Shown here: piece by piece, positions 12,403 through 64,000 of the stretch
How positions within the stretch are numbered: the first letter of the stretch is position 1
Layout of the letters: every line of letters starts with the position of its first letter
Origin: an uncultured Thermoleophilia bacterium
GTDB taxonomy: Bacteria > Actinomycetota > Thermoleophilia > UBA2241
DNA length: 64,000 nt
NCBI GenBank assembly: GCA_963808735.1
Contig: CAWEHE010000016.1
Coordinates: forward strand, 131,028 to 195,027
Direction of reading: 5' to 3'
Notes under the pieces: generated by a model
The model's database searches: none
Seen by the model: only the letters and a program-made list of their open reading frames with translations
Told to the model about the DNA's origin: nothing
Program-made: the position numbers and the translations under genes

Positions 12403-14408
<2,006 letters not shown>

Positions 14409-14412
<4 letters not shown>

Positions 14413-27508: not shown

Positions 27509-27518
27509 GGTAGGAGCG

Positions 27519-28665: not shown

Positions 28666-28751
28666 AGCTCAGGCTCGGCCGAGGCTCGCCAGGCGACGGA
28701 CGTCCCATCCGGTCAGGGTTCGCGCGGGTCACGCCCGCGCCGTCAGTAGCC

Positions 28752-38428: not shown

Positions 38429-39085
38429 TCAGTCCTCGTCGCCTCCGGGCGCAGCCGTTTCGCCGCGCACCGCGGCGAGGCGCTCCTTGAAGCCCGTCTC
38501 CTCGAAGATGGTCTGCACTTCCTTCACCACGTCCTCAGGCGGGAAGAGGTCGCCGAGCCCGAGCTCCTCGCGGATCTCGAGCAGGTGCTCCATGTAGTCG
38601 GTCCACTTCTCGCCCCAGGCCTCGCCGATGGCCGGGAACATGAGGTGCGGGTCGCCGCCCATGCCCTTCTCGTAGAAGTTGCCGCACCACTCGGCGAACA
38701 TCTCCACGTGCCGGCGGCCGCGTCCGTTCTCGACCTGGATGCCGCGCACCACCTGGTTGATGACGGCGACGCTGTTGTGGCGCGGGCAGCGGCTCTGGCA
38801 GGTGTAGCAGTAGTAGCAGTACCAGAGCGTGTCGTCCTCGAGCAGCGTGACGTCGCCGTCCAGGGCGCGGCGCGCCGTCTCTCGCGGCGAGTACTCGGTG
38901 AAGCGCGCCGCGGGGCAGCCGGAGGTGCAGACGCCGCACTGGATGCAGCTCTGGAAGCCGTCCTTGTGGTCGTGCATGCGCGGGTCGTCCAGGATGCGCT
39001 TGACCAGCTCGGGGTCGCGCCGCGGGGCGGCCGCGAACGTATCGTCCGCGAGGTGCGCGTACGGGTTGTCCTTGGCGTCAGTCAT
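38429..39085 (-). CDS. Heterodisulfide reductase subunit C-like (2x[4Fe-4S] ferredoxin-type)
   Basis: The motifs are CIQCGVCTSGCP and CYYCYTCQSRCPR. Confidence 0.75.
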   Translation of the reverse strand: MTDAKDNPYAHLADDTFAAAPRRDPELVKRILDDPRMHDHKDGFQSCIQCGVCTSGCPAARFTEYSPRETARRALDGDVTLLEDDTLWYCYYCYTCQSRCPRHNSVAVINQVVRGIQVENGRGRRHVEMFAEWCGNFYEKGMGGDPHLMFPAIGEAWGEKWTDYMEHLLEIREELGLGDLFPPEDVVKEVQTIFEETGFKERLAAVRGETAAPGGDED

Positions 39086-40256
39086 CGGTGCGCTCCTCGG
39101 GGGCGTTGGGCACGGCCTTGAAGTACTCGGGCCAGAAGTGGACGGGGACGTCGAGCTTGAGCTCGCGCGCGGCGGAGCGGAGGTTGTCGCGGCAGAGCAC
39201 GCAGGTGGTGACCACCGGCGCGCGCTGCTCGGCGGCGAACTCCAGGAGCCACGCGCTGGACTTGGTGGCGCCCCGGTACATGCCGCCGAGGGCACCACAG
39301 CAGCCGCTGTGCAGCGTCGGGTAGTCGACCACCATGGCGGCGCCCGACTGCTCGGCGGCGTCGCCGAGCGCGGCCAGGGCTGCGTCCCGGTCGGCGAGGC
39401 AGCCGACGTAGGGGACGAAGCGCTCGGAGGCGGCCGTGAGCGAGATCGACGAGTTGCGGCCGGCGCGCTCCGTGAGCGCGTCCCAGAGCGGGACCGCTTC
39501 GACGCCGCTCTCGGCGAGGCTCGCGTCGCAGGCCGGGCACGCGGTGTAGACGCGCTCCCGGCTCGCGAACAGGCTGTCGACCGTGCCGCGGCTCGGGTGG
39601 CCGCAGCAGCCGGCGCCCGCCGACTCGTCGAGGCGGACGCCGAAGCCGGCGGCCACCTCATGCACCACGGCGTGCAGCTCGTGGTCCTGCGGGATCGCGC
39701 AGCCGGCGTAGAAGGGCAGCGTGACGGCGTCTGCCGGAAGGGCTGCGCCCGCCGGCGCCTTCTTGCCGCCCGGCAGCATCTGCTTCGCCAGCTTCACGCC
39801 CATCTCGGCGGCGCCCACCTTGTCCCTGGGAACGTAGCCCTTGGAGACCATGGCCGCGCCGAAGCGCAGGTTGTCGATGCGCGACCGCTTCTGCAGGTGG
39901 TCCGTGGCCACGTCCGCGGCCGTGCGCTCGGCGCAGCGGATCGCGCCGCCGTGCTCGCGCTCGAGCCGGCGCAGACTGTGCAGGACGCCCGCGACGTCGA
40001 TGTCCATGCGGCAGACCGAGGTGCAGGTGCCGCACTCGGTGCAGCGCCAGAGGTCGTCGCTCTTGAGGACGGCCTCGATCTCACCCGCGAGGATGAGCCG
40101 GACGAGCCGGCGCGGCCCGCGGTACAGCTCGCGTCCGCTCGGACAGCTGGAGGTGCAGGTGCCGCACTGGTAGCAGGCCGAGCACTCGGCGGCGAGCTCC
40201 TTGAACGCGGCGGTGACGGCGTCCGGATACGCGATGACGTCAGGCGACGTGGCCAC
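39078..40256 (-). CDS. HdrD/GlpC-like Fe-S oxidoreductase (N-terminal 2x[4Fe-4S] plus two CCG domains)
   Basis: The motifs are CYQCGTCTSSCP, CTECGTCTSVC, CCGHPSRG and CCGALGG. The start is taken at the GTG 8 nt after GGGAGG. Confidence 0.7.
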   Translation of the reverse strand: MATSPDVIAYPDAVTAAFKELAAECSACYQCGTCTSSCPSGRELYRGPRRLVRLILAGEIEAVLKSDDLWRCTECGTCTSVCRMDIDVAGVLHSLRRLEREHGGAIRCAERTAADVATDHLQKRSRIDNLRFGAAMVSKGYVPRDKVGAAEMGVKLAKQMLPGGKKAPAGAALPADAVTLPFYAGCAIPQDHELHAVVHEVAAGFGVRLDESAGAGCCGHPSRGTVDSLFASRERVYTACPACDASLAESGVEAVPLWDALTERAGRNSSISLTAASERFVPYVGCLADRDAALAALGDAAEQSGAAMVVDYPTLHSGCCGALGGMYRGATKSSAWLLEFAAEQRAPVVTTCVLCRDNLRSAARELKLDVPVHFWPEYFKAVPNAPEERTDD

Positions 40257-42687: not shown

Positions 42688-43124
42688 GCGCTCACCACTC
42701 CGGCAGCGGCCGGCTGGGACGGCGCGGTATCCGCTTTCGGCGGCTGCGCCTCGATGGCGTCGGCCGGGCAGCCGCGGGCGCAGGTACCGCATCCCAGGCA
42801 CTTCTCGTCGTCGTAGACGATGCTGCGGTAGACGGTGACGCGCTCCGGCACCTCGACCGGGCCGTCGGGCTCGTGCTGCATGAGCCGGCGCAGCGCAGCC
42901 CCGAGCTCGCCGCGGCGGCTGCCCTCCGGCGCGTCCAGGAGCTGGTTCACGTCGAAGAAGTCGCCGCGCTCGGAGGCGCCGCTGGGGCAGTTCTTGGCGC
43001 AGGTGCCGCAGCCGACGCAGAGCTCTTCGTGACGGACGATCTCGCAGCCGACGCCGACGGTGCTCTGCAGCGAGCCGCCGGGCACGCGGTCGAGGATCTC
43101 GCGTCCGCGGTGGGTGAGCGGCAT
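42684..43124 (-). CDS. 4Fe-4S dicluster ferredoxin-like protein
   Basis: It carries two CxxCxxCxxxCP motifs. Confidence 0.65.
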   Translation of the reverse strand: MPLTHRGREILDRVPGGSLQSTVGVGCEIVRHEELCVGCGTCAKNCPSGASERGDFFDVNQLLDAPEGSRRGELGAALRRLMQHEPDGPVEVPERVTVYRSIVYDDEKCLGCGTCARGCPADAIEAQPPKADTAPSQPAAAGVVSA

Positions 43125-43633
43125 CAGGCGGCCCCCCTCTCCGCGGGGGAGGCGGCGCGGCCGGCCGCGCCGGCCTCGGATCGCGGCAGCGGCGGCAGGC
43201 CGCCGATCACGCGATCCATCTCGCGCACAGCGGCCACGAACTTGGGCGGCTCGCCGGCGCTCATCGTGAACATGCGGCAGCGCTCGGGCTCCACGCCCAC
43301 GCTCTCGAGCATCCGCTGCACGAACGTCACCCGGTCGACGGCCCTGAAGTTGCCCTCGCGGTAATGGCACTGGCCGAGCAGGCAGCCGGCGACCATGACG
43401 CCGTCGGCGCCCTCTGCCAGGGCGCTGAGGAGGTGCAGCGGACTGACGCGGCCGGTGCACGGCATCAGCACGAGACGGACAGTCGGCGGCAGCGGCGTGC
43501 GCGCGTTGGCGCTCGCGTCGGCCGCCGCATAGGCGCACTCCCGGCAGCAGAACGCGACGATGGTGCGGTCGCCGCTCGTCGCGCCGGCGCCTGCCGCGGC
43601 TCCGGTCGCCGTGGCTGTCGTGGATGCCGTCAT
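43124..43633 (-). CDS. MvhD/FlpD-like domain protein
   Basis: The sequence reads IVAFCCRECAYAAAD...LVLMPCTGRVSPLHLLSALAEGADGVMVAGC. Confidence 0.65.
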   Translation of the reverse strand: MTASTTATATGAAAGAGATSGDRTIVAFCCRECAYAAADASANARTPLPPTVRLVLMPCTGRVSPLHLLSALAEGADGVMVAGCLLGQCHYREGNFRAVDRVTFVQRMLESVGVEPERCRMFTMSAGEPPKFVAAVREMDRVIGGLPPLPRSEAGAAGRAASPAERGAA

Positions 43634-46600
43634 CAGACGGTCGCCTCCGCCAGCACCTCGGCGTCGCTGAAGCCGCCGAGCTGCATCGCCCCTGTGGGGC
43701 ACTCGGCGGCGCAGATGCCGCAGCCGCGGCAGATGTTGGGGTCGACGAACGAGTGCGCTTCGGGTCCGACCGTGATGGTGATCGCCGTCTGCGGGCAGGC
43801 CGTCTCGCAGACGCCGCAGGCGACGCAGACCAAGGCGTCGCTGGAGGCGACCTGCGCAGGCGTCATCGCGAAGCCCGTGCTCAGCATGCTGATGGCACGG
43901 GCCGCCGCCGCCTTGGCCTGTGCGATCGACTCGGGGATCGTCTTGGGTCCTTGCGCGGTGCCGCACAGGTACATCCCGGTGCGCTGCGTGTCGACGGGGG
44001 CGAGCTTGGGGTGGAACTCGCGGATGAAGCCGGCGGCCGCCGTCTGCACGCCGGCGACGCGGGCGATGTCCTGCGTACCCGCGGAGCCCTCGAGGCCGGC
44101 GGAGAGCACCACGAGGTCGTACTGATCCTCGCTCTTGGCGCCGGTCATGGTGTTCTCCATGCGCACCGTGAGCGAGCCGTCCTGCTCCTCGAGGATCTCG
44201 CCGACGCGGCCGCGCACGTAGCGCACGCCGCGCTCCTGCACCAGCCGGTAGTACTCCTCGTGCGCCTTGCCCGGCGTGCGCATGTCGGTGTAGCCGATGG
44301 TGATCTCGGCTTCCGGGTAGTGCTGCTTGATCAGCGAACTGTGCAGTGTGGCGAACAGGCAGCAGATGGCCGAGCAGTGCTCGTTGCCGCTGCTGGTGCA
44401 GTCGCGCGAGCCGACGCACTGGAGCATGAAGATGCGCTTGGGCGTCTCGCCGTCGGAGGGACGCTCGAGCTCGCCCGCGGTCGGCCCGGAGGCCGACAGC
44501 AGCCGGGCGAGCTGGCTCTGCGTGAGCACGTTCTTGAAGCGGCCGTAGCCGAGCGGCAGCTTGCGCGCCGCGTCGAACTCCTGATGGCCGGTCGCCAGGA
44601 TGACGGCGCCGACGGTGATCTCCTCGTCCCAGGCCTTCTGGTCGAAGTCGATGGCGTCGGCGGGGCACGCCGTGACGCACGACTTGCAGTCGGAGCACAC
44701 GGCGCAGTCGAGGCAGCGCTCGGCCTCGGCGCGGACGTCCTCCTCGCTGAAGCCGAGGCGGACCTCCTCCCACGTGGTGCGGCGCGCGACGCCGTCCAGG
44801 GTCTTCATGATGCGGCGCGCCTGCGGCTCGAGCGGGTCGAGCTCCGTGTGCGGGATCTTGACCTTGTCGGCCTCGGAGTCCCACACGGGGATCAGCTGCT
44901 CGCCGCGCAGGAAGTTGTGCACGGCGCGGGCGCCGCGACGGCCGGCGGCGATCGCCTCGATCGCCGTCCAGGGGCCCATCGCGGCGGCGTCCCCGCCGGC
45001 GAACACGCCGGTGCGGCCGGTCATCATCGTGTCGGGGTCGACGGTGATCTGGCCGCGGGCGACGGCGACGCCGTCGGCGCCGGTCGCCACGAAGTCGTCG
45101 ACGATCGCCTGGCCGACCGCGAAGATGACGGTGTCGGCCTCGAGCTCGACGAACTCGCCCTCCACGGGCACCGGCGGGCGCCAGCCGCGCTCGTTGGGCT
45201 CGCCCAAGGTACAGCGCTGGAACTTCACGCCGGTGGCGACGCCGCCCTTGCCGAGGATCTCGACGGGCACGAGTGAGTACTCGACGTGGACCTGCTCCTC
45301 CTTGCCTTCTTCGATCTCCTCGGACGAGGCCGGCGCCGTGCGCTCGTCCTCGATGCAGGCGAGGGTGACCTCGCCGGCGCCGCAGCGGTACGCCGTGCGG
45401 CCGGCGTCGTAGGCCACGTCGCCGCCGCCGACCACGACCACGCGCTTCCCGGTGGTCACCGTCTCGCCGAGCGCCTGCGCGCGCAGGAACTCGACGGCGC
45501 GCAGCGACGCCCTGCTGGTCGAGGCCGTCGATCGGCAGGTCCTTGCTCTGGTGCAGGCCGGTCGCCAGGAAGACGGCCTTGTAGCCGTCGGCGAACAGCG
45601 AGTCGACGGTGAAGTCGGAGCCGCAGCGCATGCCCGGTCTTGAGCTCGACGCCGAGGGCGGTGATGCGGTCCACCTCGCCCTGCAGCGCGGTGCGCGGCA
45701 GGCGGTACTCGGGGATGCCCACGCGCAGCATGCCGCCGGCGACCGGGAGAGCCTCGAACACGGTCGCCTTGTAGCCGAACTGCGCGAGCTCGCGAGCGGC
45801 GGTGAGGCCGGCGGGGCCGCCGCCGACGATCGCCACGGGCTCGTCGTAGAACACCGGCAGCGCCTCGGGCATCTCGCCCGGGACGCCGTGGTCGGCGACG
45901 AAGCGCTTGATGCCGGCGATGGCGATCGGGTCCTCCACCTTGCCGCGCGTGCACTCGGTCTCGCAGACGTGCGTGCAGATGCGGCCGCAGACGCTGGGGA
46001 AGGGGTTCGGCTCGCTGGCGACCCGGTACGCCTCCTCGTAGCGGCCCTTGGCGACCAGCGCCACGTAGCCGTGGGCGGACGTGTGCACGGGGCACGCGGT
46101 CTTGCAGGGGCTCCAGCCCTTGCGGTCGACGGCGAAGGTCGCCGGGACGGCGTTGGCGAACGGCCGCGAGATCGCGGTCCGCTCGCTGACGCCGAAGTCG
46201 AACTCGTTCGGGTAGGTCACGGGACACACCGCGGAGCACTCGCCGCAGCCGACGCACTTCTCGTCCACGTAGCGGGGCCGGTGGCGGAGCGTCACGTTGA
46301 ACTCGCCGGGGGGGCCGGTGACGGAGGTGACGTCGGAGAGCGTGTGGATGTGGACGCGGCTGTTGGTCGCGGCGCCGGTCAGGCGAGGCGCCAGCGAGCA
46401 CATGGCGCAGTCCTCGGTCGGGAAGGTCTTGCTGAGGCGGGACATGTAGCCGCCGATGCTCTGCTGGCGCTCGACGAGGTGGACCTCGATGCCCGCGGCG
46501 GCCAGCTCCTCCGCGGCGGACATGCCGGCGATGCCGCCGCCGACCACCATGACGGAGCGGTTGAGGAACGTGCGCTGGCGCGGCAGGTCGCTCATGTGCT

Positions 46601-46979
46601 GCAGACGGGCGACGGCGCCCTCGACGATCTTGCTCGCCTTGACCTGCGCGCGCTCGGGCTCGTGCGCGTGCACGTAGGAGCAACCCTCGCGGATGTTGCC
46701 GAAGGCCACGGAGTTCTCGCCCAGCTTGAGCTCGCGCGCGATGCGCTCGAAGGTCGGGCCCTGGAAGCGCGGCGAGCACGAGGCGATGACGAAGTGGTCG
46801 AGGCCGCGCTCTTCCACGGCCTTCTCGATCATCGCGCGGCCCTCGGTGCCGCACATGAACTGGTTGACGTTCACCTCGACGACGCCGTCCAGCGCGCGCA
46901 CGTGCTCGGCGAGCGGCTCGAGGTCGATCACGCCGCTGATGTTGCCGCCGCACTGGCAGAGGAAGACTCCGGCCCTCAT
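43633..46979 (-). pseudogene. Giant HdrA-like flavoprotein with inserted GltD/NfnB-like NAD(P)H-binding module; two apparent +1 frameshifts near 45623 and 45505
   Basis: The sequence is split over three frames. Frame 1: MRAGVFLCQCGGNISG..., FAD motif, GltD-like CGRICTHVCE, FAD-2 site VAIVGGGPAGL...KTGHAL. Frame 2: GSDFTVDSLFADGYKAVFLATG. Frame 3: LRAVEFL...VVVVGGGDVAYD, the HdrA core, CCLFATLHS and two terminal ferredoxin clusters. Confidence 0.75.
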
Positions 46980-47941
46980 CCCACGACCTCCATGCTGCGG
47001 GCGCCGATGCGCTCGAGGAAGGGCTCGACATCCTGGGAGTGCGTCTGGACGCCGACGATCTTCTCGGGGTCGGCGCCCATCGCCAGCGCCAGGAGCTGCT
47101 GCACGTGCAGGTGCACGAACGGGTACTCCTCGCCGAATCCCGCGGAGATGATGTCGCTGAAGCGGTCGAACTGGATGTGGCAGTTGGGGCACATGTGCAC
47201 GAGCACGTCGACCTTCTCCTCGGCCAGCCGGTGCAGCTTCTTCTGCGTCACCCCGACCGAGATCGACGGGTTGACGAAGCGGTTGCGGAAGCCGGCCCCG
47301 CAGTGGGTCTGCTTCTCGTTGTAGGCGCCGGTGCAGGTGACGCCGGCGGGGATGAGCATCTCCTCCGGCACCATGAAGTTCTCGTTGTTGCCCAGGGTCT
47401 CGTCGGGGAAGACCTTGCAGTAGTGGCAGGCGGGGTGGGTGGCCACCTTGATGCCGTCGAGGCGACGGCGGATGAGCTCCGGCACGCTGTCGTGGGCGCC
47501 CCACAGGATCTCGAGGGTGTGCTTGTGCTGGACGGTGCCGGCGATGCGGTCGTCGTACTCGCGGCCGATCTTGCCGAGCACGTCGTTGGTCTCCGCGCGG
47601 TAGCCGGGGACGTCGAGGATGTTGCGCGCCTTCTTGTTGATCGCGTAGCAGGTGGAGCAGAGGTAGCTCATCACGGGGTGCTCGTCGTCGACGACGACGC
47701 AGGCGTTGCGCGCGGCGATGCCGACGGTGGTCTGGATCGGCATGAGGTCGGAGTAGTAGCCGAGGCCGGTGCAGCACGTCTGGTCCTCGTTGACGGTGTA
47801 CTCGATGCCGAAGCGCTCGAAGAGCCACTTGGTCGACGACTCGACGCCCGGGTACTCGGCCGAGACCAGGCAGCTGCGGAACAGCGTGACGCCCTTCTCG
47901 ATGCGCGGCACGTCGGGAGTTGAAGTGTAGCGTTTGCCCAT
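46976..47941 (-). CDS. Heterodisulfide reductase subunit B-like (two CCG domains)
   Basis: The motifs are CCTGLG and CPNCH. An AT-richer promoter region lies upstream at 47990-48330. The start is M1 or M14. Confidence 0.7.
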   Translation of the reverse strand: MGKRYTSTPDVPRIEKGVTLFRSCLVSAEYPGVESSTKWLFERFGIEYTVNEDQTCCTGLGYYSDLMPIQTTVGIAARNACVVVDDEHPVMSYLCSTCYAINKKARNILDVPGYRAETNDVLGKIGREYDDRIAGTVQHKHTLEILWGAHDSVPELIRRRLDGIKVATHPACHYCKVFPDETLGNNENFMVPEEMLIPAGVTCTGAYNEKQTHCGAGFRNRFVNPSISVGVTQKKLHRLAEEKVDVLVHMCPNCHIQFDRFSDIISAGFGEEYPFVHLHVQQLLALAMGADPEKIVGVQTHSQDVEPFLERIGARSMEVVG

Positions 47942-48329
47942 GGTCCCCTCGCGGTAGCTGACGACTCGGCTATTGTCCATAAGAAATGCTGTTCCTGCAA
48001 ATCAGCTTGGCTTATAGATGGCGTGAGGGTGATAAGCGGGCGTCCAGCCGGACGATTCAGGCGCCTTCAGTCTGATGCGCGAGCGCGCGAGGCGGCCGGT
48101 CGCCGGCGCCACGCCGCAGGCCGGGAGTCTCTCACATGCCCTGTCACCGTCCTGCGTCGAGGAGGTACGGAGCGCCGCGGGCCGAGACCAACAGGCGTCG
48201 CTTCACGTGGCGACACCAGGTGCATGCGGGCGCGTTACAGGGGACCCGATTCAGGGGAGGAATCTAGTACCAGCACCGGTGTCGTGGCCCCCGCTCCGGA
48301 GGCCGCAGCCGCCTCGAGGGGAGGGCTCA

Positions 48330-48566
48330 ATGCGCCAGGTCCACCCGATGCCGACCCAGACGCATTCCGGTCACGCGCCCGTGCCTGCACCTCCGTCGAC
48401 CGTCCGCTCCCTCGACAGCGCCCACTGTGGCCTGTGCGGCGCCAAGCTGTCCACCAGGACCCTCCGCTATCACGTCGTCTCGCCACAATGCTGCGACGCG
48501 CCCATCACGGTGTGCCACACCTGCCGCAACGCGGCGCTGGGCGAAGGGTACCGGCCGGCCGAGTAG
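48330..48566 (+). CDS. Hypothetical small Cys-rich protein (CxxC...CC...CxxC, zinc-ribbon-like)
   Basis: It has a strong RBS (ggggaggg 5 nt before ATG) and high GC3. It lies in the divergent promoter region between the hdr cluster and hemE. Confidence 0.35.
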   Translation: MRQVHPMPTQTHSGHAPVPAPPSTVRSLDSAHCGLCGAKLSTRTLRYHVVSPQCCDAPITVCHTCRNAALGEGYRPAE

Positions 48567-48712
48567 CCGGTGGACCTGCGGTGCACCGCCAGTTGGCTGG
48601 TCCGCGCAGAAGCGGGGCGGCCCGGGTCTTCGCCTCCGACGGGAGCCCGAGGGCTCCCGTTTGCTACAATCACCATCCCGACGCTTCTGTCCCGCCACAC
48701 CAGGTGATGCCC

Positions 48713-49738
48713 ATGCGCCTTCTCGATGCCTGTGCCCGCAAGCCCGTCGACGCGACGCCGATCTGGCTCATGCGCCAGGCCGGCCGCTACCTGCCCGAGT
48801 ACCGCGCCATCCGCGAGAAGATGAGCTTCGTGGAGATGTGCCGGCGGCCGGACATCGCGGCGGAGGTCACATTGCAGCCGCTCCGCCGCTTCGACCTCGA
48901 CGCCGCCATCGTCTTCGCCGACATCCTCCTGCCGCTCGAGCCCATGGGGATCGGCTTCCACTTCACGCCCGAGGATGGCCCCGTCATCGAGCGGCCCATC
49001 CGCGGCGCTCGCGACCTCGAGGGCGTGCACACCATCGACGCGGCGTCGGACCTCGAGTACGTCATGGACACCATCCGTCTCGTGCGTCACGAGATGGACG
49101 ACGACATCCCCCTCATCGGCTTCTCCGGCGCGCCGTTCACCCTGGCCAGCTACATCGTCGAGGGCGGCCACTCGCGCAACTACGCGCACGTCAAGAAGCT
49201 CATGTACCAGGACCCGGTGACGTTCAACCGGCTGATGGGGCTCATCTCCGAGGTCGTCGTGGACTACCTCAAGGCGCAGATCGCCGCCGGCGCCCAGGTC
49301 GTGCAGCTGTTCGACTCCTGGGTCGGCTGGCTGAGCCCTTACGACTACGAGCTCCTCGTGCTGCCGCACGTTCGGTACGTGGTCGACCACGTCAAGGGCC
49401 TGGGGGCGCCGGTCATCTACTTCGGCAACGGCGCCTCGGCGATGCTCCACCTCGTCGGCAAGGCGGGGAGCGACGTGTACGGCGTCGACTGGCGCATCGA
49501 ACTCGACCGCGCCTGGGACCAGCTCGGTGACGTCGCCGTGCAGGGCAACCTCGACCCGATCACGCTCCTCGGACCTGTCAAGGCCATCGAGGAGCGCGCC
49601 GCGGACGTGATCCGTCGCGCCGGCGGCCGGCCGGGGCACATCTTCAACCTCGGGCACGGCCTGATCCCGCAGGTGCCGCCGGACAACGTCAAGTACCTCG
49701 TCGACGCCGTGCACCGGCTCTCGGCCGCCACCGCCTGA
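48713..49738 (+). CDS. hemE: Uroporphyrinogen decarboxylase
   Basis: The HemE signatures are PIWLMRQAGRYLPEY and GFSGAPFTLASY. An AGGTGA RBS sits before the second ATG. Confidence 0.9.
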   Translation: MRLLDACARKPVDATPIWLMRQAGRYLPEYRAIREKMSFVEMCRRPDIAAEVTLQPLRRFDLDAAIVFADILLPLEPMGIGFHFTPEDGPVIERPIRGARDLEGVHTIDAASDLEYVMDTIRLVRHEMDDDIPLIGFSGAPFTLASYIVEGGHSRNYAHVKKLMYQDPVTFNRLMGLISEVVVDYLKAQIAAGAQVVQLFDSWVGWLSPYDYELLVLPHVRYVVDHVKGLGAPVIYFGNGASAMLHLVGKAGSDVYGVDWRIELDRAWDQLGDVAVQGNLDPITLLGPVKAIEERAADVIRRAGGRPGHIFNLGHGLIPQVPPDNVKYLVDAVHRLSAATA

Positions 49739-49760
49739 GCCTGCCGGGGAGATCCACGCC

Positions 49761-50726
49761 ATGACCGACAGCCTCGTCGACGTCGCTCTTCTCGCCTACG
49801 GCGGTCCGGAGAGCCCCGAGCAGATCGTGCCCTTCCTCGAGCGGCTGATGGGGCGCACGCCCGACCCGGGGACGGTCGCCGCCGTGCAGGAGCGCTACGC
49901 GCTCATCGGCGGCGCCTCGCCGCTGCCCGGCATCACCGCTCTCCAGGCGGCTGCGCTCGAGGCCAAGCTCGTCAAGGAGCTCGCGTTCCCGGTGCGCGTG
50001 CGCCACGGCTTCCTGTACACCGAGCCGGGCGTCACCGACTGCGTGCGATCTCTCGATGGGCACCGGGTGATCGCCCTGCCGATGAGTCCCTTCTCGTCGC
50101 GGCTCACGAGCGGCCGGTACCGGACGCAGCTCGCGGCCGCGGAGGACCCGGCCACCGGCGGCCGCGGCCGTGACATCCCGCTGCTCGAGGGCTGGTACGC
50201 GAGCCGCGGCTTCGTGCAGACCATCAGCCGCCGCGTCGCGGCGGCGCTCGACGGCTGCGACGTCAACGAGTGGGCCGTGCTCTTCACCGCGCACAGCGTG
50301 CCGTCCGAGACGATCGCCGAGGGCGACCCCTACGTGGACCAGCTGCAGATGACGATCTCCCAGCTGGTCCCGCAGATCATGCCGGGCGACTGGCGCTTCG
50401 GCTTCCAGAGCAAGGGCCGCGGCGGGGGCGAGTGGATGGGCCCGGAGGCCGACGACGTGGTGCGCCTCCTGGCGGAGGAGGGCTGGAAGAAGATCCTCGT
50501 CGTGCCGGTCGGCTTCGTCAGCGACAACGTGGAGACCCTCTACGACCTCGACATCGTGCTGCGCGCCCAGATCGAGGGCCTCGGCATCGAGTACCGCCGT
50601 TCGCACGCGCCCAACGACTCGCCCTACTTCATCGACGCGCTCGCCGACGTCGTCACCGACTACCTCGCCCTGCGGCCGGTCGCGCATGCTCCCCACCGGC
50701 CCGACGGCCCGCACGAGCACGGCTGA
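49761..50726 (+). CDS. hemH: Ferrochelatase (coproporphyrin ferrochelatase-type)
   Basis: It matches HemH/CpfC over its full length (VALLAYGGPES, HSVP region). Confidence 0.85.
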   Translation: MTDSLVDVALLAYGGPESPEQIVPFLERLMGRTPDPGTVAAVQERYALIGGASPLPGITALQAAALEAKLVKELAFPVRVRHGFLYTEPGVTDCVRSLDGHRVIALPMSPFSSRLTSGRYRTQLAAAEDPATGGRGRDIPLLEGWYASRGFVQTISRRVAAALDGCDVNEWAVLFTAHSVPSETIAEGDPYVDQLQMTISQLVPQIMPGDWRFGFQSKGRGGGEWMGPEADDVVRLLAEEGWKKILVVPVGFVSDNVETLYDLDIVLRAQIEGLGIEYRRSHAPNDSPYFIDALADVVTDYLALRPVAHAPHRPDGPHEHG

Positions 50727-52348
50727 TGCCCGAGCCCTTCCGCATCGTCGTGGTCGGCGGCGGCATGGCCGGCCTCGGGGCGGCGCGCGTGCTCGAGGCG
50801 GCGCGCGCCCAGGACACCTCCGTCGACTGGCAGCTCTACGAGGAGGAGCCGCGCTTCGGCGGCAAGGTCCACACCGTGCGCCGCGACGGGTTCGTCGTCG
50901 AGGGCGGGCCCGACTCGGCGATCATCGAGAAGCACTGGCCGATCACGGCCGCACGCGAGCTGGGCATCGGTGACCGCTTCCTCGACTGCAACGAGGACAT
51001 CCGGAAGAGCTTCGTCTACACCCGCGGGCAGCTGCACGAGCTGCCCGAGGGCATCATCCTCATGGTGCCGACGCGCATGGTGCCGTTCGCGATGAGCGGC
51101 CTGATGAGCTGGCCGGGCAAGGTCCGCATGGGCCTCGACCTGGTGCTGCCGCGAGGCGGCGGGGCGACGGGAGGGCCGGCGGGCGCCATCGGGCCGGCCC
51201 TCGACGAGAGCCTCGGCGACTTCGTCCGCCGCCGGCTCGGCAAGGAGGCGCTGCAGCGCATCGCCGAGCCGATCGTGGCCGGCATCCACGCCGGCGACCC
51301 CGAGCAGATGAGCGTGCGCGCGACCTTCCCCATGTTCCTCGACATGGAGCGCGAGCACCGCAGCCTGATCCTCGCGATGCTCAAGCGGCGCAAGGCGCGC
51401 CAGAAGGCCGCCGCCGCCCGCGGCGGCGGGCAGGGTGCGCCGGCCGGCGGGGCGACGGGGTCCGCCGCGGCCGGGACCGGCGGGACCGGCGGTGCCAGCC
51501 CCCAAGGCCCGCGCTCGTATTTCTACTCATTCAAGGGCGGGCTGCAGGACCTCAGCGACGCGGCCGTCGCGTCGCTGCCGGCCGAGCGCCTGCACGGTGG
51601 GGTCGGCGTCAAGACGATGGCCGCCTGCGGTGCCGGGTGCGGCGCCAGCGCCAGGACCGGCGCCTACGCGCTGCAGCTCGGCGACGGCTCGCGCGTGGTG
51701 GCCGACGCCGTCGTCCTCGCGACTCCGGCGTGGGCGAGCGGCGACCTGCTGCGGGCCATCGCGCCGCTCGCCGCCGCCGACCTCTCGTCCATCGACTACG
51801 TCACGACTGCGACCGCTTCGGTCGCCTTCCGGGCGGACCAGGTGGGGCACGACCTCAAGGGCTTCGGCTTCGTCGTGCCTCGCGCCGAGAACCGCCCCGT
51901 CATGGCGACTACGTGGAGCTCGAGCAAGTTCGACGGGCGCGCTCCCGACGGCCACGTGCTGCTGCGCAGCTTCCTCGGCCGAGCCGGGCGTGAGGCCGCG
52001 GCCCAGCTGGACGACGACGAGATGGCCGCGGTCGTGCGCGCCGAGCTGCGCGAGATCATGGGCATCTCGTCCGAGCCGGAGTTCGTGCAGATCTTCCGCT
52101 GGCCGCGCGGCATGCCCCAGTATCGCGTCGGCCACGTCGAGCTGGTCGGGCACATCGAGGCCGCCGTCGCCCGCGTGCCGGGCGTCGAGATCGCCGGCGG
52201 CGCCTACCACGGCATCGGCATCGGCGACTGCCTGCGCGAGGGCGCGGCCGCCGCGGAGCGCGCCCTCGAGCACGTCCGCGGCCTGCCCGAGGACGACGTC
52301 CCGCCGCAGCCGCCGGACCTCCCCGCCGCCGACGGCCTCGAGGATTAG
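50726..52348 (+). CDS. hemY: Protoporphyrinogen/coproporphyrinogen III oxidase (HemY/CgoX family)
   Basis: It has the N-terminal FAD motif IVVVGGGMAGLGAA and a HemY C-terminus (GVEIAGGAYHGIGIGDC). A low-complexity insertion is present. Confidence 0.85.
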   Translation: MPEPFRIVVVGGGMAGLGAARVLEAARAQDTSVDWQLYEEEPRFGGKVHTVRRDGFVVEGGPDSAIIEKHWPITAARELGIGDRFLDCNEDIRKSFVYTRGQLHELPEGIILMVPTRMVPFAMSGLMSWPGKVRMGLDLVLPRGGGATGGPAGAIGPALDESLGDFVRRRLGKEALQRIAEPIVAGIHAGDPEQMSVRATFPMFLDMEREHRSLILAMLKRRKARQKAAAARGGGQGAPAGGATGSAAAGTGGTGGASPQGPRSYFYSFKGGLQDLSDAAVASLPAERLHGGVGVKTMAACGAGCGASARTGAYALQLGDGSRVVADAVVLATPAWASGDLLRAIAPLAAADLSSIDYVTTATASVAFRADQVGHDLKGFGFVVPRAENRPVMATTWSSSKFDGRAPDGHVLLRSFLGRAGREAAAQLDDDEMAAVVRAELREIMGISSEPEFVQIFRWPRGMPQYRVGHVELVGHIEAAVARVPGVEIAGGAYHGIGIGDCLREGAAAAERALEHVRGLPEDDVPPQPPDLPAADGLED

Positions 52349-58886: not shown

Positions 58887-61274
58887 TCACTTGACGGTGA
58901 TCGTGAACGACCGAGAGGTCGTGGCGGCGCAGAGATCGCTGCCCGAGAACTTGACGCGCAGCGTGTGCGTGCCCTTGGGCAGGCTCGTGGCTCCCTCGCC
59001 ATCCTTGATCTTCACGGTCTTGTAGCTCACCCAGCGGCCGCTCTTGTTGAGCTGCAGCTTGGCCGTGCCGCTGGCGTCGCCCGGCCTCACGTGGACGGTG
59101 AGCTTGGACGCCCCGGACAGCCAGATCTGGGCGCTGACCTTGACGTCAGCCGAGGCGCTGCCCGGCAGCTCGTTCGCGGTCGCCTCGGTACGGGCGATGA
59201 GCTCGGCGTTCTTCGTGAGCCCCGGCACGACCTTCCTGAAGTACGCGTAGCCCCGCTTGGCCGTGGCCTTCACCTTGCCGACGAGCACCGGCGCCGCCGC
59301 GTCGACGTTCTGGCGGTAGATGCTCACCTGGAGGTCCTTGGAGCTGCGCACCATGCCGATGAGCTGCGTGGCGCCGCCGTAGGCGACCTTGGCCGGACGA
59401 GCCTGGACCATGACCTGTGCGGTCCTCTTGGAGAAGTAGCTGTCGAAGACGTAGCTCGTCGGTACCGTGACCTCGACGCCGGTCGGCTCCCCTTCATCCC
59501 CACTGTCGGAGCTGCCACCGTTGGGTTCGAAGGAGACCAGCAGATCGCTGTTCTTCGGTTGGGCGTTGAGGCTCTCCACCACGTCGGCGAGCGTCCGCGG
59601 CGCGCCGCCGCCGCCATCGCCGTCGCCGCAGCCGCAGCAACTGCACCAGCCGCCTCCCCACTGGTCCCAGCTGGCGGGCGTGACGGTGAGGCGTCCGTAC
59701 AGCGACATGCCCTTGGGGATCGTCAGCGTGCCCTCGACGGTCTGAGGGGTCGCGGACCCGTACCGGTAGTAGACGATGCGCACGAGGTTGTCGCCCACCT
59801 TGATGCCGTCGGGCAGCGTGACGTCCTCGATGCGCGCCGACAGCTGCGTCGCGGACACGTCGGCGACGACGTCGACGGACTCGATGCGCGGCTGGAGGAC
59901 CCCGTCGGGGTTGGCCGCGAGCTGCATCAGGGCCTGGGCCGCGTCCCTGCCGGCCTGGTAGGACACATCCCATGAGCTGGTCCAGAGGTTCTCGCGCTGC
60001 ACGGTGTAGGTCCCCGTGGCGTCGGAGACGACCACGGTGGTCTTCGTCGTCGCGCTGCCGGGGATGCTCGACTGATCCGCGGCACGGTAGACGAGCTCGC
60101 CGACGATGTCGCCGGGCAGAGTCGGGTAGGCGCCGGAGGAGACCAGCCACTCGCTGGCGCCCGACTCGTCCTGCATCGAGACGGCGCGGTCGACGAGGTT
60201 GACCGTGGTGGTCACCGGGAAGACGTCGGGGGTCTGGCCGAGATGAGCCTCGACACCCCAGTTGCGGTCCTGCACGCAGGTGCCCTTGACGTCGCGTGGG
60301 GCGATGAGCTTGTACGGCGTGTTGCTGCTGGCCCAGACGCCCTCCACGTAGCCGCCGGTGAGCGCCGCGTCGATCGCGCCGAACTGCTCGAACGGGTGGC
60401 CGAAGAGCATCGCCGCGTCGTCGTCGACGTAGGTGACGGTGCCGGCGGCGCCGACCCACACGGCGCCCTGCGAGAAGAGGATGGCGCAGGGCGACCCGGC
60501 CTCGAGGGTCGGGACAGGCGCGCCGGCCCACTCACCGCTGCCGCTCGCCGCCTTGACCAGCAGACCGCTCTTGGCGAACTTGGCGGCGATCCGGTCGAAC
60601 GCCTTGCTGCCCGGCCGGGCGCCGCCGATCTCGAGGATGCCGAGCGGCGCCATCACCGTCTGGCCGCTCGCGGCCTCGACCTTGGCGGCGGCCTTGGCGC
60701 TGCGGGCGACGACGACGCTGCGGACCACGCCGCCGCCGGTCTCTACGGGCTCGTCGAGCGCGTAGGTGCCGGCCGAAGGCGGCCGCGGGGCCTCGATGGA
60801 CGCCAGCGCGCCGACGGGGTAGTTCTCCTCGATCGCCGCCATGTACTCGATCGGTGTGGCGAGGCCCATGCCGTTGAGCGTGAACCAGTCGCCGTAGGAG
60901 AGGGCGCCGATGAGCTTGTCGGTGCCGGCGTCGTCGATGTAGACGGGGCTGCCGCTCATGCCGGCGGCGATGCCGCCGATCCTGTCGATCTGCGGTCCGG
61001 TGGCCTCGAAGAGGATCAGCGTGCCCCAGGAGTAGTCGACGAGGCTCTCCACAGTCACCGGGATCTCCTCCGGCGTGGTGCCTCTCATGGTGGTGAGCAG
61101 GTGGCCGCTGAGCGGCCCGGACTCGAGCGCTGCGGCCAGCTGTTCGAGATCCATCGTCGGCTCCGGTGGCGCCGCCGCGGCCGTCTGGGCGAGCGCCAGC
61201 AGCAGCACGATGGCGAGCAACAACGGGATGAACAGCGCCGTCCGCTTCACGGCTCGGCAAGACAGAAACGCCAT
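58887..61274 (-). CDS. Secreted S55 (SpoIVB-like) peptidase-domain protein with C-terminal Ig-like domains
   Basis: It has a signal peptide (MAFLSCRAVKRTALFIPLLLAIVLLLALAQTAAA), a GMSGSPVYIDD serine motif, a CSCCGCGDGDGG stretch and a beta-rich C-terminus. Confidence 0.6.
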   Translation of the reverse strand: MAFLSCRAVKRTALFIPLLLAIVLLLALAQTAAAAPPEPTMDLEQLAAALESGPLSGHLLTTMRGTTPEEIPVTVESLVDYSWGTLILFEATGPQIDRIGGIAAGMSGSPVYIDDAGTDKLIGALSYGDWFTLNGMGLATPIEYMAAIEENYPVGALASIEAPRPPSAGTYALDEPVETGGGVVRSVVVARSAKAAAKVEAASGQTVMAPLGILEIGGARPGSKAFDRIAAKFAKSGLLVKAASGSGEWAGAPVPTLEAGSPCAILFSQGAVWVGAAGTVTYVDDDAAMLFGHPFEQFGAIDAALTGGYVEGVWASSNTPYKLIAPRDVKGTCVQDRNWGVEAHLGQTPDVFPVTTTVNLVDRAVSMQDESGASEWLVSSGAYPTLPGDIVGELVYRAADQSSIPGSATTKTTVVVSDATGTYTVQRENLWTSSWDVSYQAGRDAAQALMQLAANPDGVLQPRIESVDVVADVSATQLSARIEDVTLPDGIKVGDNLVRIVYYRYGSATPQTVEGTLTIPKGMSLYGRLTVTPASWDQWGGGWCSCCGCGDGDGGGGAPRTLADVVESLNAQPKNSDLLVSFEPNGGSSDSGDEGEPTGVEVTVPTSYVFDSYFSKRTAQVMVQARPAKVAYGGATQLIGMVRSSKDLQVSIYRQNVDAAAPVLVGKVKATAKRGYAYFRKVVPGLTKNAELIARTEATANELPGSASADVKVSAQIWLSGASKLTVHVRPGDASGTAKLQLNKSGRWVSYKTVKIKDGEGATSLPKGTHTLRVKFSGSDLCAATTSRSFTITVK

Positions 61275-61443
61275 GGCCCCTCCAAACGTCCCCGTACGGC
61301 GGCTAGGCACCGCCGTTCCACGCACAAGCGTACACCCTGTGGGAAGAGGGGGCGGGCGCCGGTGGCCGACATGGCCACCGGCGCCCGCCCCGGGCTGCTC
61401 GCGCCGATCTCGTCCCCGGCGGGCGCTGGTCAGGCCGGCTTCG

Positions 61444-63253
61444 TCAGAGCGGCTTCACCTTGCGCGCCTGGCTGGTGGCGTCCCAGGTCGTGCCGCTGCC
61501 GGTGGAGCGCAGCCGGAACGTCGTGGTCTTGTTCAGCGTGTACTTGAACGTCACCGGCGTGGCCGTCGCCGCGGCGACCTTCACCGTCTTCGTGGCGACG
61601 GTCTTCCAGCCACCCGACGAGGTCTGGGTCTGCAGCTTGACGGCGCGGTCGCCGGCGGACCCGGTCGTGATCTTGCCGTTCAGCGTGAGCTTCTTGCCTG
61701 CCTGGACGCGCGTGGGGGCGGCGAGCGAGAGCTTCGCCGGGTCCTTCACGGTCACCTGCAGCGACGTCGTGCGCTTGCCGGAGCACGCGGCCGGGTCGGC
61801 GGGGTTGTTGACGAGGTCGCCGTCGGCGCAGGTCAGCTCGACCGCGTAGGTGCCCGCGGCCGCGTAGACGTAGGAGAGCTGCGCCGCCGCGGCCGGCATC
61901 GCGTGGTTGCCGTCACCGGTCCACCACTCGTACGTGTTGGCCGACGCGTTGCCCCATCCGGTCAGAGCCGAGGCGTCGAAGACGACGGGGGAGCCGGTCG
62001 TGGGGCGCTCGGTGGTCGTCACGAAGCCGGGGTCGTAGGTCGCGGCCGTGCGCCGGAGCTTTGCTTCCTCACCCTTGATGAGGTCGAGGTCCTGGTTGAC
62101 CTCCGACCAGCCGAACCAGTGGCTGTAGTCGGGGTTGATGTGGTAGGCGCCCTTGAACGTGCTCACGTGGTCGTACTTGTAGGTGTAGAAGAAGAGCTGC
62201 TCGATCGCCGAGGTGCCGCCGTAGAGCTGCTGGCCGCCGAGCACGAGGTTCTGCCCGAAGATGGGGTTCGCGGGGCGGTTCGACGGCATGGGATCGAGCA
62301 GCTTGTCCCACCAGAGGCCGCGGATGCGCATGACGGGATCCCAGAGCAGGGAGTCGACGTCGGCCTTGATGGCGTCGGCGCCCTCCAGGTTGTTGCGCGC
62401 GAACCCCCGCGCGTGGCAGTCCCCGCAGAGCGCGACCATCTTGTCGCGCCTCTGGTCGAACTCCCCGGGCGTGATAGTGCGCATCGGCACGGGGAGAGCG
62501 ACGCCCGGCAGGCGGGCGCCCTGGGCCACCGTCCCGATGGTGATGTTGGTCGAGACGTCGTGCGTGAGCGGTTGGCCCGCGCCGTTCTCCATGGTGGGCA
62601 TGTGGCAGGTCACGCACGACGGGGCACGGTTCGGGTCGCCGCCCGCGCGATCCCTCTCGGTGCCGTAGACGACGCCGTGCTTGCTCTTCTCCCACATGTC
62701 GATCTGCTCGTGGTCGGGGCCCATGTGGCAGGTACCGCACGCCGGCGGCTCCATGGCCTCCTCGGCGGAGAAGACGTGGCGCGTGTGGCAGCTGTCGCAC
62801 TTGCCGACAGAGCCGTCGGCGGCGATCTCGCCGATGTTGTGGCAGCGCTCGCACATCTCGTAGCGCTGGGCCTCGGGCATGACCTTGTAGCGCGCCGAGG
62901 CGGTCATGCGCGTCCAGCCCTGGGCGTGCTTGTTGATGTAGGCGCCGGAGGCGTCCTTGGCGGCGAACTCGTGATACTGGTCGGGGTGGCAGCCCGCCTG
63001 GGCGCAGGTGCTGGCGGGCACCTGACCCTGTGCGGCGCTCGATGGCCGCGTGATCGGCGCCGTGGCAGGTGACGCACGTGACCCCGGCGCCCGACATGGC
63101 GCCCTTGTCGTACTGAGAGACCAGGCCGGGCTGAAGCGCCGTGTGACACTGGAGGCACTGGGCCTGCGTGTACACGTCCGCCACGGCGGGCGACGCTCCG
63201 GCCAGGCCGAGCACAACGAGCGCCAAGGCGAGCAACAGGACGGATCTTCTCAT
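61444..63253 (-). pseudogene. Secreted octaheme c-type cytochrome (HAO/ONR-like multihaem family) with two C-terminal PKD/Ig-like domains; apparent +1 frameshift near 63037
   Basis: The signal peptide and first two CxxCH motifs (CLQCH, CVTCH) are in ORF 62069..63253. Six further haem motifs (CAQAGCH, CERCH, CDSCH, CGTCH, CVTCH, CGDCH) and the PKD-like WTGDGN region are in ORF 61444..63216. Confidence 0.7.
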
Positions 63254-63387
63254 CGGTGCACCCCCACCAGAAGACGACAGTTGACGTCAGTATCAACCAT
63301 CCGCGCCGCCGCGGGAATTGACTTTGGTCGGGGCGGGCGCGGCTACGGCGAGCGCCCGCCCGGGACGAGCGCGCGGCCGGCGCCCGC

Positions 63388-64000
63388 TCAGCCGGGGTGC
63401 GGCCGGCGCGCCTCGATGCGGAACACGTGGTGGCGGTTGGCGCCGCGCTCGCAGTCGAAGGCGAGGGTCGCGCGCGAGAGGTCCTTGACCTCGAGCCCGC
63501 CGAGCTCGGCGCGGTCGAGGCGGAAGTTCCGCAGGTTGGTCGCGAACAGGAGGATCCCGCCCGGCGCGAGCAGGCGGCGGGCGGTCAGGCGGATCAGGTC
63601 GGCGTGGTCGCGCTGCACGTCGAACGTGGCGCGACCCATGCGCTTGGAGTTGCTGAACGTCGGCGGGTCCAGCCAGACCAGGTCGTACTGACCGCCGGTC
63701 TGAGCCACCCAGCGCAGGCAGTCGGCCTGCACGAGGGTGTGCGCGGCGGCCGGGCCGGCGGCCTTGGCGCCGCAGGCGGACGCGTCCGTCGCGCCGCCGT
63801 CCGCCGCCGGCCACTGCTGCTTCGCGCTCTCGAAGCCGTTGGCCGCGAGGTTGCTCGCTGCCCAGTCGAGGTAGGTCGCCGAGAGGTCGACGGTCGTGGA
63901 CTCCGGCGAGCCTCCCGCGAGGGCGTTGACGGTCATGGCGCCGGTGTAGGAGAAGAGATTGAGGAACCGGCGTCCGCCGGCCATCTTGCGCACCAGCCGC
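63388..64000 (-). CDS. Class I SAM-dependent (rRNA m2G/m5C-type, RlmI/RlmK-like) methyltransferase, C-terminal part; gene continues beyond the window end
   Basis: The motifs are FSYTGAM and YDLVWLDPPTFSNSK. Confidence 0.6.
   Translation of the reverse strand, partial: RLVRKMAGGRRFLNLFSYTGAMTVNALAGGSPESTTVDLSATYLDWAASNLAANGFESAKQQWPAADGGATDASACGAKAAGPAAAHTLVQADCLRWVAQTGGQYDLVWLDPPTFSNSKRMGRATFDVQRDHADLIRLTARRLLAPGGILLFATNLRNFRLDRAELGGLEVKDLSRATLAFDCERGANRHHVFRIEARRPHPG

Follow-up and report, generated by a model that had tools for sequence, protein, structure and literature searches.

An octahaem cytochrome c of the HAO family with PKD and Ig-like domains in an uncultured Thermoleophilia bacterium, a candidate extracytoplasmic reductase of nitrogen oxides

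The 64,000-nt stretch of DNA analysed here, called the window throughout, belongs to an uncultured Thermoleophilia bacterium (GenBank assembly GCA_963808735.1, contig CAWEHE010000016.1, positions 131,028 to 195,027 of the forward strand). On its minus strand, from 63253 to 61444, lies a gene for an octahaem cytochrome c, which gives a product of 602 amino acids (aa) with zero other stop codons when a single base (63037) is skipped. The gene, the features of its product and the elements upstream of it are listed below.

61444..63253, minus strand: whole octahaem cytochrome c gene, its frame broken by one extra base at 63037 in the assembly
63037..63037, minus strand: single surplus base, C on the coding strand, cause of the frameshift (the window reads gcc atc gag C gcc gca cag)
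63179..63253, minus strand: Sec-type signal peptide MRRSVLLLALALVVLGLAGASPAVA, cleavage site between AVA and D judged by eye, N-terminus kept in orthologues
63143-63157, minus strand: haem 1, CLQCH
63062-63076, minus strand: haem 2, CVTCH
62986-63006, minus strand: haem 3, CAQAGCH (Cx4CH)
62839-62853, minus strand: haem 4, CERCH, aligned with the catalytic (P460-position) haem of HAO
62785-62799, minus strand: haem 5, CDSCH
62725-62739, minus strand: haem 6, CGTCH
62602-62616, minus strand: haem 7, CVTCH
62413-62427, minus strand: haem 8, CGDCH
62710..62715, minus strand: Asp180-His181, HAO-type distal catalytic pair after haem 6 (CGTCHMGPDH), aligned to GIDH in KsHOX and GPDH in HAOr
62116..62133, minus strand: PDYSHW segment with His378 where oxidative HAOs have their cross-linking Tyr, from two alignments
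61816..62016, minus strand: PKD domain, aa 413-479, containing WWTGDG (Pfam PKD_4, E 1.6e-8, 34.9 bits, cut-off 27)
61447..61740, minus strand: second C-terminal beta-sandwich (Ig-like), about aa 505-602, from the AlphaFold model
63318..63331, minus strand: CCGACCAAAGTCAA, a degenerate TTGAC-N4-GTCAA box (HcpR/FNR-type), centred 71 nt upstream of the ATG
63289..63294, minus strand: GATACT, a -10-like hexamer, 23 nt past the box

The start codon ATG at 63253 is preceded by GGTGGGGG. The frame that opens there reads MRRSVLLLALALVVLGLAGASPAVA followed, past the cleavage site, by DVYTQAQCLQCH...CVTCHGADHAAIE, and includes CLQCH and CVTCH. Its coding sense is lost past ...CHGADHAAIE at 63038, and the remainder of the cytochrome lies on a second frame, in a 590-aa open reading frame (ORF) at 61444..63216. 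Orthologues read ...HAAIEAAQG(K/Q)VPASTC... across the break, and the window has exactly one base more. A frameshift had been suspected near 63037, and this position proved exact: skipping the one base yields the 602-aa product, which aligns without gaps and with 96% identity to P0305, an intact 602-aa JGI protein of the same 90% cluster. A further copy from ENA, P0307, is frameshifted at another site.

The original prediction had placed eight haem-binding motifs, seven CxxCH and one CxxxxCH, behind a Sec signal peptide, and the repaired product bears this out in both respects. The eight motifs do not vary among 31 orthologues, apart from haem 3, where one subclade has an ordinary CxxCH; the Cx4CH spacing results from a subclade-specific insertion of two residues, and other members have CAGCH at this place. 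In view of this invariance and of the match to the Pfam family PF13447 (Multi-haem_cyto; E 4.6e-21, 75.7 bits, cut-off 21.9), the motifs are not due to chance. The signal peptide of the 602-aa cytochrome contains no lipobox Cys. Two PKD-like beta-sandwich domains had been proposed to follow the haem motifs. Both are confident beta-sandwiches in an AlphaFold2 model based on the 31 orthologues (predicted local distance difference test, pLDDT, >90), while only the first is a PKD domain by profile. The second, for which neither a Pfam family match nor a PKD match was found, is missing from a 505-aa subgroup of the clade. A Foldseek comparison with the PDB returned only generic tandem Ig/FnIII matches for the C-terminus. 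As had been proposed from the fusion to these domains, the cytochrome may be displayed at the cell surface.

The assignment of the cytochrome to the HAO family is nearly certain. When a profile of the 31 orthologues was compared with solved structures, the best match was Kuenenia HAOr (Kustc0458, 6H5L; 3.7e-42, over aa 30-403), followed by KsHOX (3.9e-37), IhOCC (6e-29, fragmentary), HDH (2.3e-25) and the Nitrosomonas enzyme NeHAO (1.6e-23); the solved entries matched at 1e-23 to 1e-42 include 6h5l, 4n4j, 6t5e, 6hif and 4fas. The sole relevant NCBIfam match was hydrazine_HDH, which at 81.6 bits is far under its cut-off of 900. In HMMER alignments the eight motifs correspond one-to-one to haems 1-8 of KsHOX, HAOr and HDH, and CERCH therefore occupies the position of the catalytic haem 4. 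An HAO/ONR-like protein had been predicted, and the HAO half of this description is supported by PF13447 and by the family profile. The ONR half had to be dropped: the 602-aa sequence contains no CxxCK motif, Pfam gave no match to Cytochrom_C552 (PF02335), and since there is neither this motif nor a match to an NrfA/ONR profile, the protein is HAO-like and not of the ONR/NrfA type. Profiles pointing to a non-HAO cytochrome family would have spoken against the prediction, and those obtained give the HAO family.

The distal Asp-His pair is almost fully kept among the 57 clade members compared, with Asp in 56 and His in all of them. His378 stands where oxidative HAOs have the cross-linking tyrosine. 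Tyr467 of NeHAO (GGWTY467TEGW, mature-chain numbering) falls on this residue of the invariant PDYSHWFGW segment in the HMMER alignment, and the tyrosine of the KsHOX 'QTY' motif does so in an independent MAFFT alignment of 236 sequences; the position was aligned at about 30% identity, and Tyr376 sits two residues upstream of His378. In the 57 members the residues around this place are distributed as follows.

Position 376: Y 37, H 14, W 5
Position 378: His 55
Position 380: Y 36, L 11, F 6, E 3, K 1

Thus, no tyrosine around the cross-link position is strictly conserved across the 57 members; within the Thermoleophilia clade Tyr376 is invariant. The catalytic Tyr and Lys of related enzymes had been named as residues of interest, and in their stead we found His378 at the place of the former and no CxxCK lysine motif for the latter. 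Tyr406, located just past the haem domain, was considered as the cross-link residue and rejected, as it is Gly or absent in several orthologues. In a wider set of about 100 clade sequences the segment PDYxHW[FY]GW, the His of which is aligned with the cross-linking Tyr of oxidative HAOs, is near-invariant.

Absence of the cross-link Tyr has been tied to reductive catalysis, and εHao and HAOr reduce nitrite, nitric oxide (NO) and hydroxylamine and do not oxidise hydroxylamine (PMC8042395; PMC9250108). Since the tyrosine is replaced by a conserved His, the reductive direction is expected here as well, and judging from the sequence an oxidative role would be unlikely. His378 itself could be an active-site residue contributed by a neighbouring subunit, or a haem ligand.

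The search for relatives covered 5.8 billion proteins and returned 383 of them, and a profile search of 1.84 billion cluster representatives gave 342 clusters at E≤1e-30 and 6111 at E≤1e-3. The phylogenetic check was run as a rough neighbour-joining (NJ) distance tree of 235 sequences, built without an εHao reference. In it, the window protein falls within a monophyletic group of about 54 sequences bearing C-terminal extensions of about 195-204 aa (PKD and Ig-like) or about 101-104 aa (PKD only), almost exclusively from Thermoleophilia metagenome-assembled genomes (MAGs). The sister group consists of haem-only proteins with short hydrophobic tails and 35-54% identity, which originate from Methanoperedenaceae, Thermoplasmata, Zixibacteria and others. 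Together the two groups form a clade of 104 members with the Asp-His pair, CxTCH at haem 7 and PDYxHW as hallmarks. The solved anammox HAOs (KsHOX, HDH, HAOr) are found in a separate 20-member clade with CxYCH, outside of which the window protein lies.

Multihaem enzymes of this kind had been considered unusual in actinobacterium-like contexts. In the present lineage they are not rare: at least 17 of the GTDB species representatives labelled Thermoleophilia, MAGs that mostly come from soil, carry the PKD-fused form, which is also found on two small contigs bearing other labels. The small contigs L008 (JBLMXT010000112.1) and L013 harbour close orthologues, 82% and 68% identical, and are labelled Deltaproteobacteria and Actinomycetes, respectively. 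L008 shows RlmKL-cytochrome synteny and is probably a mis-binned Thermoleophilia fragment; L013 was checked only for RlmKL and S9 neighbours. Cluster look-ups on other clades returned only the generic labels 'hydroxylamine dehydrogenase' or 'nitrate reductase'. By inspection, the Methanoperedens relatives P0066, P0070 and P0072 end in ...PGF, a hydrophobic stretch and KRK, resembling a PGF-CTERM archaeosortase signal that an NCBIfam scan did not confirm. The Thermoleophilia proteins have a conserved PGF at the equivalent place, the junction to the PKD domain.

About 105 nt of upstream DNA from 13 orthologues were aligned. The sole conserved elements are a 14-bp island, a -10-like TAnnnT located 23-26 nt downstream of it, and a Shine-Dalgarno sequence. 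The island reads TTGTC-N4-GTCAA or CCGAC-N4-GTCAA, both degenerate versions of the palindrome TTGAC-N4-GTCAA, and its centre lies 68-72 nt ahead of the ATG in 16 of 18 promoters, even where the upstream gene is a different one. The spacing between the box and the -10-like hexamer places the box centre near -41.5, which would correspond to the class II geometry of CRP/FNR activators. Perfect TTGAC-N4-GTCAA copies are present upstream of a ferredoxin-cooS-like operon in L009 and L030 (TTGACGCAGGTCAA) and in L016 (TTGACCCAGGTCAA), the three related loci that cover the promoter region of this operon (fdx-cooS-V), and there the perfect box is separated from the -10-like hexamer by 22-23 nt, as at the cytochrome. 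The box agrees with the published HcpR1 consensus, TTGACnnnnGTCAA; the HcpR1 box is found upstream of hcp and of the ferredoxin-like frdX, and predicted HcpR regulons often include cytochrome c-like genes (PMC1274295).

A gene matching the Pfam family 'Prismane' is co-oriented with the cytochrome gene and located 5-9 kb upstream of it in at least eight Thermoleophilia loci, and in Methanoperedens a Prismane/cooS-V gene lies 93-105 nt upstream of the homologous cytochrome. We rejected the possibility that the linked gene encodes an Hcp. NCBIfam identifies it as a carbon monoxide (CO) dehydrogenase catalytic subunit (CO_DH_cata, 736 bits), and the best solved relative is 7b7q, with 709 bits versus 401 or less for other CO dehydrogenases (CODHs), which shows the product to be CooS-V-type; 7b7q is presumably the CooS-V entry itself. 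All linked cooS-like copies have Glu (GSIETG) at the Cys295 position, the change diagnostic of CooS-V, which combines a CODH scaffold with an Fe/S/O hybrid cluster, does not oxidise CO and slowly reduces hydroxylamine (PMC9311411, where the PDB code 7b7q is mentioned). The cooS genes that accompany the octahaem cytochrome probably do not encode CO dehydrogenases. The CooS-V-type gene regions are the following.

L009: 427-4663
L016: 676-3146
L030: 522-4759
L031: 6031-7908
L038: 3947-8646

In Thermoleophilia, cooS-V is preceded by a gene for a 127-aa ferredoxin and by the perfect TTGAC-N4-GTCAA box. One Methanoperedens operon (L038) comprises cooS-V, the octahaem cytochrome, CBS, HPP and ferredoxin genes, in which no gap after the cytochrome exceeds 3 nt; HPP proteins form a family of nitrite transporters. 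In a more distant relative the order is cytochrome-CBS-HPP and nrfHA is 5.6 kb away, and in another one a gene for an Rrf2-family regulator follows the cytochrome. Ahead of fdx-cooS-V, L009 (427-2073) and L030 (522-2168) encode a 548-aa membrane polyferredoxin in which a NapH-like and a NapG-like part are fused, and a NapH/NapG-like polyferredoxin is also found near the cytochrome in L019 (2990-4531). It is a possible quinol-linked electron donor or entry point.

Taken together, we favour, at somewhat better than even chances, the view that the window cytochrome is an extracytoplasmic reductase for nitrite, NO and/or hydroxylamine and part of a nitrogen-oxide response. Seven of its haems would then serve as an electron wire and haem 4 (CERCH), with the distal Asp180-His181, as the catalytic centre, while the conserved His in place of the cross-link tyrosine would make the enzyme run reductively. 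Fed with electrons from the membrane, the cytochrome would work on the outer face of the cytoplasmic membrane and convert nitrite, NO and/or hydroxylamine into NO or ammonium. The PKD and Ig-like domains would probably hold the haem core, likely a trimer, in the cell envelope. Further, transcription from its own promoter with the HcpR/FNR-type box would probably place the cytochrome in a nitrogen-oxide or nitrosative-stress regulon shared with the cytoplasmic CooS-V-type hybrid-cluster enzyme.

It is tempting to go one step further, although we regard this only as a tentative proposal with the odds clearly against it. The cytochrome and the CooS-V-type enzyme, in archaea together with the CBS-HPP pair, might form an unrecognised two-compartment pathway for nitrite, NO and hydroxylamine under HcpR-like control. 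Such a module might serve detoxification or ammonification and be shared by soil Thermoleophilia and Methanoperedens, probably via horizontal transfer. The conserved His might then be a new active-site element which is provided by the neighbouring subunit, replaces the tyrosine cross-link and tunes the product. For example, hydroxylamine or NO might be released and then be reduced by CooS-V in the cytoplasm.

Several observations weigh against the proposed role as a nitrogen-oxide reductase of this regulon. The characterised HAO-family enzymes are all only about 32% identical to the protein, and the haem domain of the AlphaFold2 model is unreliable (pLDDT <50 over most of it, model mean 59.6, no haems modelled). 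If His378 were the sixth ligand, it could make haem 4 non-catalytic. No LPXTG, lipobox, transmembrane segment or other recognisable envelope anchor was found in the 602-aa cytochrome, and neither the window nor up to 10 kb in related loci contains another multihaem ORF, c-type cytochrome or redox partner. The box has two mismatches in the window, where 14 matches compare with 8.3±2.7 expected and are not significant; the evidence for it is its positional conservation among orthologues. A gene for an HcpR-like regulator was not found. The window ends inside RlmKL, and the cooS-V linkage is known from related genomes. Finally, two archaeal contexts (L034, L035) are devoid of nitrogen-related genes.

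Alternatively, the cytochrome could be a surface-held conduit for extracellular electron transfer in a monoderm cell, or a terminal reductase there that acts on insoluble or humic acceptors, similar to OcwA of Thermincola; here the PKD/Ig domains would bind the wall or a mineral, and His378 may close the sixth coordination site of haem 4. We consider this unlikely. The protein is exported, has eight haems together with PKD and Ig-like domains, and bears a conserved His at a haem-4-facing position; its sister proteins with a C-terminal PGF...hydrophobic...basic tail come from Methanoperedens, which is rich in multihaem cytochromes; and OcwA-type monoderm surface cytochromes, which belong to the same superfamily, reduce nitrite in vitro too (PMC9250108). 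However, the catalytic Asp-His pair of HAO is almost invariant across the clade, and the contexts are of the nitrite/NO type (HPP, CooS-V, Rrf2, nrfHA and the HcpR-type box). Moreover, the window protein has no Pfam match of the MtrC/OmcA type, and other cytochromes with which it could form a conduit are not encoded nearby.

Independently of the function, the surplus base at 63037 could be real and the gene a true pseudogene, inactivated in the source organism. In line with this, the frameshift stands in the deposited assembly, the gene call of which consists only of the 525-aa downstream product P0001, and the extra base lies outside any homopolymer run. However, analysis of the frames by the G+C content at third codon positions (GC3), followed by Pfam scans, revealed at least six more frame breaks in housekeeping genes of the window, among them the following.

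3165-4350, minus strand: homoserine dehydrogenase, profile positions 1-116 and 116-173 in different frames
11259-12402, plus strand: kdpA, profile positions 210-469 and 467-548 in different frames
12400-14412, plus strand: kdpB, profile coordinates run on across frames
27306-29096, plus strand: zinc alcohol dehydrogenase, profile coordinates run on across frames
about 45450-45650, minus strand: HdrA/GltD-like fusion, profile coordinates run on across frames

The Pfam profile coordinates pass from one frame into another in such genes, which points to an indel-prone assembly of the long-read type, and related long-read MAG loci are similarly fragmented by frame breaks. In addition, both pieces of the cytochrome gene retain the full coding signal (GC3 0.93), and the repaired product closely matches its intact relative. 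Thus, inactivation of the gene is rather improbable, and the frameshift at 63037 is probably an assembly indel error and not biological.

The cytochrome could also be a reductase for another substrate such as sulfite, tetrathionate or a different oxyanion, comparable to MccA or OTR. The sequence does not reveal the substrate, and members of the superfamily catalyse diverse reactions (PMC9250108), which leaves this explanation a small chance. However, the position of the catalytic haem and the Asp-His pair are of the HAO type, whereas the five-coordinate haem of MccA and OTR is located in the N-terminal module (PMC9250108), and no sulfur-metabolism genes are present in the contexts examined. 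An oxidative hydroxylamine (or hydrazine) dehydrogenase, for example of heterotrophic nitrification, with Tyr376 as an alternative cross-link can be set aside as very improbable: membership in the HAO family, the Asp-His pair and the invariance of Tyr376 in the Thermoleophilia clade, within a segment homologous to the cross-link loop, fit such an enzyme, but two independent alignments both put His at the cross-link position, a third of the wider clade has H or W at position 376, the protein lies outside the KsHOX/HDH/HAOr clade, amo/pmo genes and c554-type partners are missing nearby, and the neighbouring regulon is reductive or detoxifying in character.

The genes flanking the cytochrome gene in the window are the following.

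63388..64000, minus strand: 3' end of a gene for an RlmKL-type ribosomal RNA methyltransferase, upstream of the cytochrome and running off the window, a syntenic neighbour only
58887..61325, minus strand: downstream gene for an 812-aa secreted protein that matches SpoIVB/S55 only weakly and in part and has an Ig-like C-terminus

The 812-aa protein had been described as a secreted SpoIVB-like S55 peptidase, a claim that the profiles support poorly. Pfam S55 is matched with E 0.0079 and 16.7 bits (cut-off 25) over profile positions 125-192 of 210 only, and NCBIfam SpoIVB with 19.3 bits (cut-off 305); the match is confined to the C-terminal third of the SpoIVB/S55 profile, around GMSGSP. An unusual stretch of the protein, GGGWCSCCGCGDGDGGGG, is rich in Cys and Gly, and its C-terminal end is formed by Ig-like domains. 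An anchoring domain common to it and to the C-terminus of the cytochrome was considered and rejected, as the similarity is not significant (best E 0.065). Further downstream follow genes for an S9 peptidase, HtrA, Amidase_2 and a radical-SAM protein, and here the S9 peptidase and HtrA assignments made earlier are solid, as is Amidase_2. The gene order around the cytochrome is conserved among Thermoleophilia; depending on the genome, the S55-like gene is found downstream of the cytochrome, upstream of it, at a distance or not at all. We regard the peptidase neighbours as a matter of synteny and argue for no functional tie to the cytochrome.

Genes for cytochrome c maturation or of the nitrogen cycle were not found among the window ORFs scanned, and the two terminator-like matches near the cytochrome gene, both on the opposite strand, do not exceed chance. 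Elsewhere the window is of housekeeping character (kdp, hemE-hemH-hemY, an Hdr-like cluster, nadA and others). The haem cluster of hemE (URO-D), hemH (ferrochelatase) and a hemY-like gene (amine-oxidase family) at 47924-52348 (plus strand) is about 10 kb away from the cytochrome, and the same trio occurs near the orthologue in L030. The heterodisulfide-reductase-like cluster at 38429-48001 (minus strand) encodes a CCG-domain HdrB-like protein, an HdrA-like protein with FlpD/MvhD, several 4Fe-4S proteins and the GltD-like fusion; it suggests an anaerobic or facultative lifestyle of this Thermoleophilia MAG. At 1467-1577 (minus strand) a glycine riboswitch aptamer (Rfam RF00504, 53.8 bits) is located at the 5' end of a gene of the D-2-hydroxyacid dehydrogenase family (216-1562).

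As a route of nitrite, NO and hydroxylamine turnover, HAO-family enzymes without the tyrosine cross-link have received little study. To our knowledge, only three or four of them have been characterised, and Gram-positive soil bacteria are not among their sources. HAO-like octahaem proteins that lack the Tyr are as such a known kind; new are a clade without a characterised member, a PKD/Ig fusion confined to a monoderm soil class, and a His at the cross-link position. The literature searched on Thermoleophilia or actinobacterial HAO-like cytochromes contained nothing specific, and a regulatory and positional link between such a cytochrome and CooS-V is not described in the searchable literature. 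Thermoleophilia are an abundant, almost uncultured soil class in which the clade is common, and if these enzymes are active, they may be an overlooked soil sink or source of reactive nitrogen species. The conserved box and the recurrent linkage also offer a testable physiological context for CooS-V, the structure of which is solved while its physiological role is unknown (PMC9311411), and they warn that 'cooS' beside hao in Methanoperedens may not encode CO dehydrogenases. Last but not least, the PKD/Ig fusion suggests one means by which a monoderm could retain a soluble multihaem enzyme outside the membrane.

Among known systems, HAOr (6H5L) shares with the window protein the eight haems in the same order, the Asp-His pair of CHMGPDH and the lack of the cross-linking tyrosine, and it is a nitrite-reducing HAO with reductive catalysis (PMC8042395). 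However, it is about 32% identical and belongs to another clade of the tree. HAOr has CxYCH at haem 7, an N-terminal extension of roughly 75 residues and the dihaem partner Kustc0457, whereas the window protein has CxTCH at haem 7, no partner gene nearby, His at the cross-link position, and PKD and Ig-like domains. εHao and IhOCC (4QO5) are HAO-family octahaem proteins which lack the tyrosine and reduce nitrite and hydroxylamine in vitro (PMC8042395, PMC9250108). IhOCC resembles the window protein in the CxTCH motif of haem 7 and differs in that Val replaces the His of the catalytic pair (DPDV) and in that its matches are fragmentary; PKD/Ig domains are absent from both εHao and IhOCC. With the oxidative HAO, HOX and HDH enzymes (Nitrosomonas 1FGJ/4FAS, Kuenenia 4N4J, 6HIF) the window protein has the fold family, the haem order and the Asp-His pair in common, but it carries His378 instead of the cross-linking Tyr and has no long N-terminal extension.

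OcwA and OmhA of monoderm Firmicutes are likewise multihaem cytochromes of the same superfamily, exposed on the Gram-positive cell surface. They carry nine or eleven haems, two of them five-coordinate, and belong to clade 3 (PMC9250108), whereas the window protein is of the clade-1 (HAO) type. A parallel in gene context is the 'Hao' of a cooS cluster in Ca. Methanoperedens BLZ2 (PMC13079737, 2026); Methanoperedens homologues with 43-46% identity in the haem domain lie directly downstream of a cooS-like gene. That study draws the cooS-hao cluster and regards its cooS genes as Ni-CODHs, while hao is given no role. In contrast, we found the gene adjoining the cytochrome to be of the CooS-V type with Glu at the Cys295 position, and the Methanoperedens proteins, which have no PKD/Ig domains, end in a hydrophobic, anchor-like tail.

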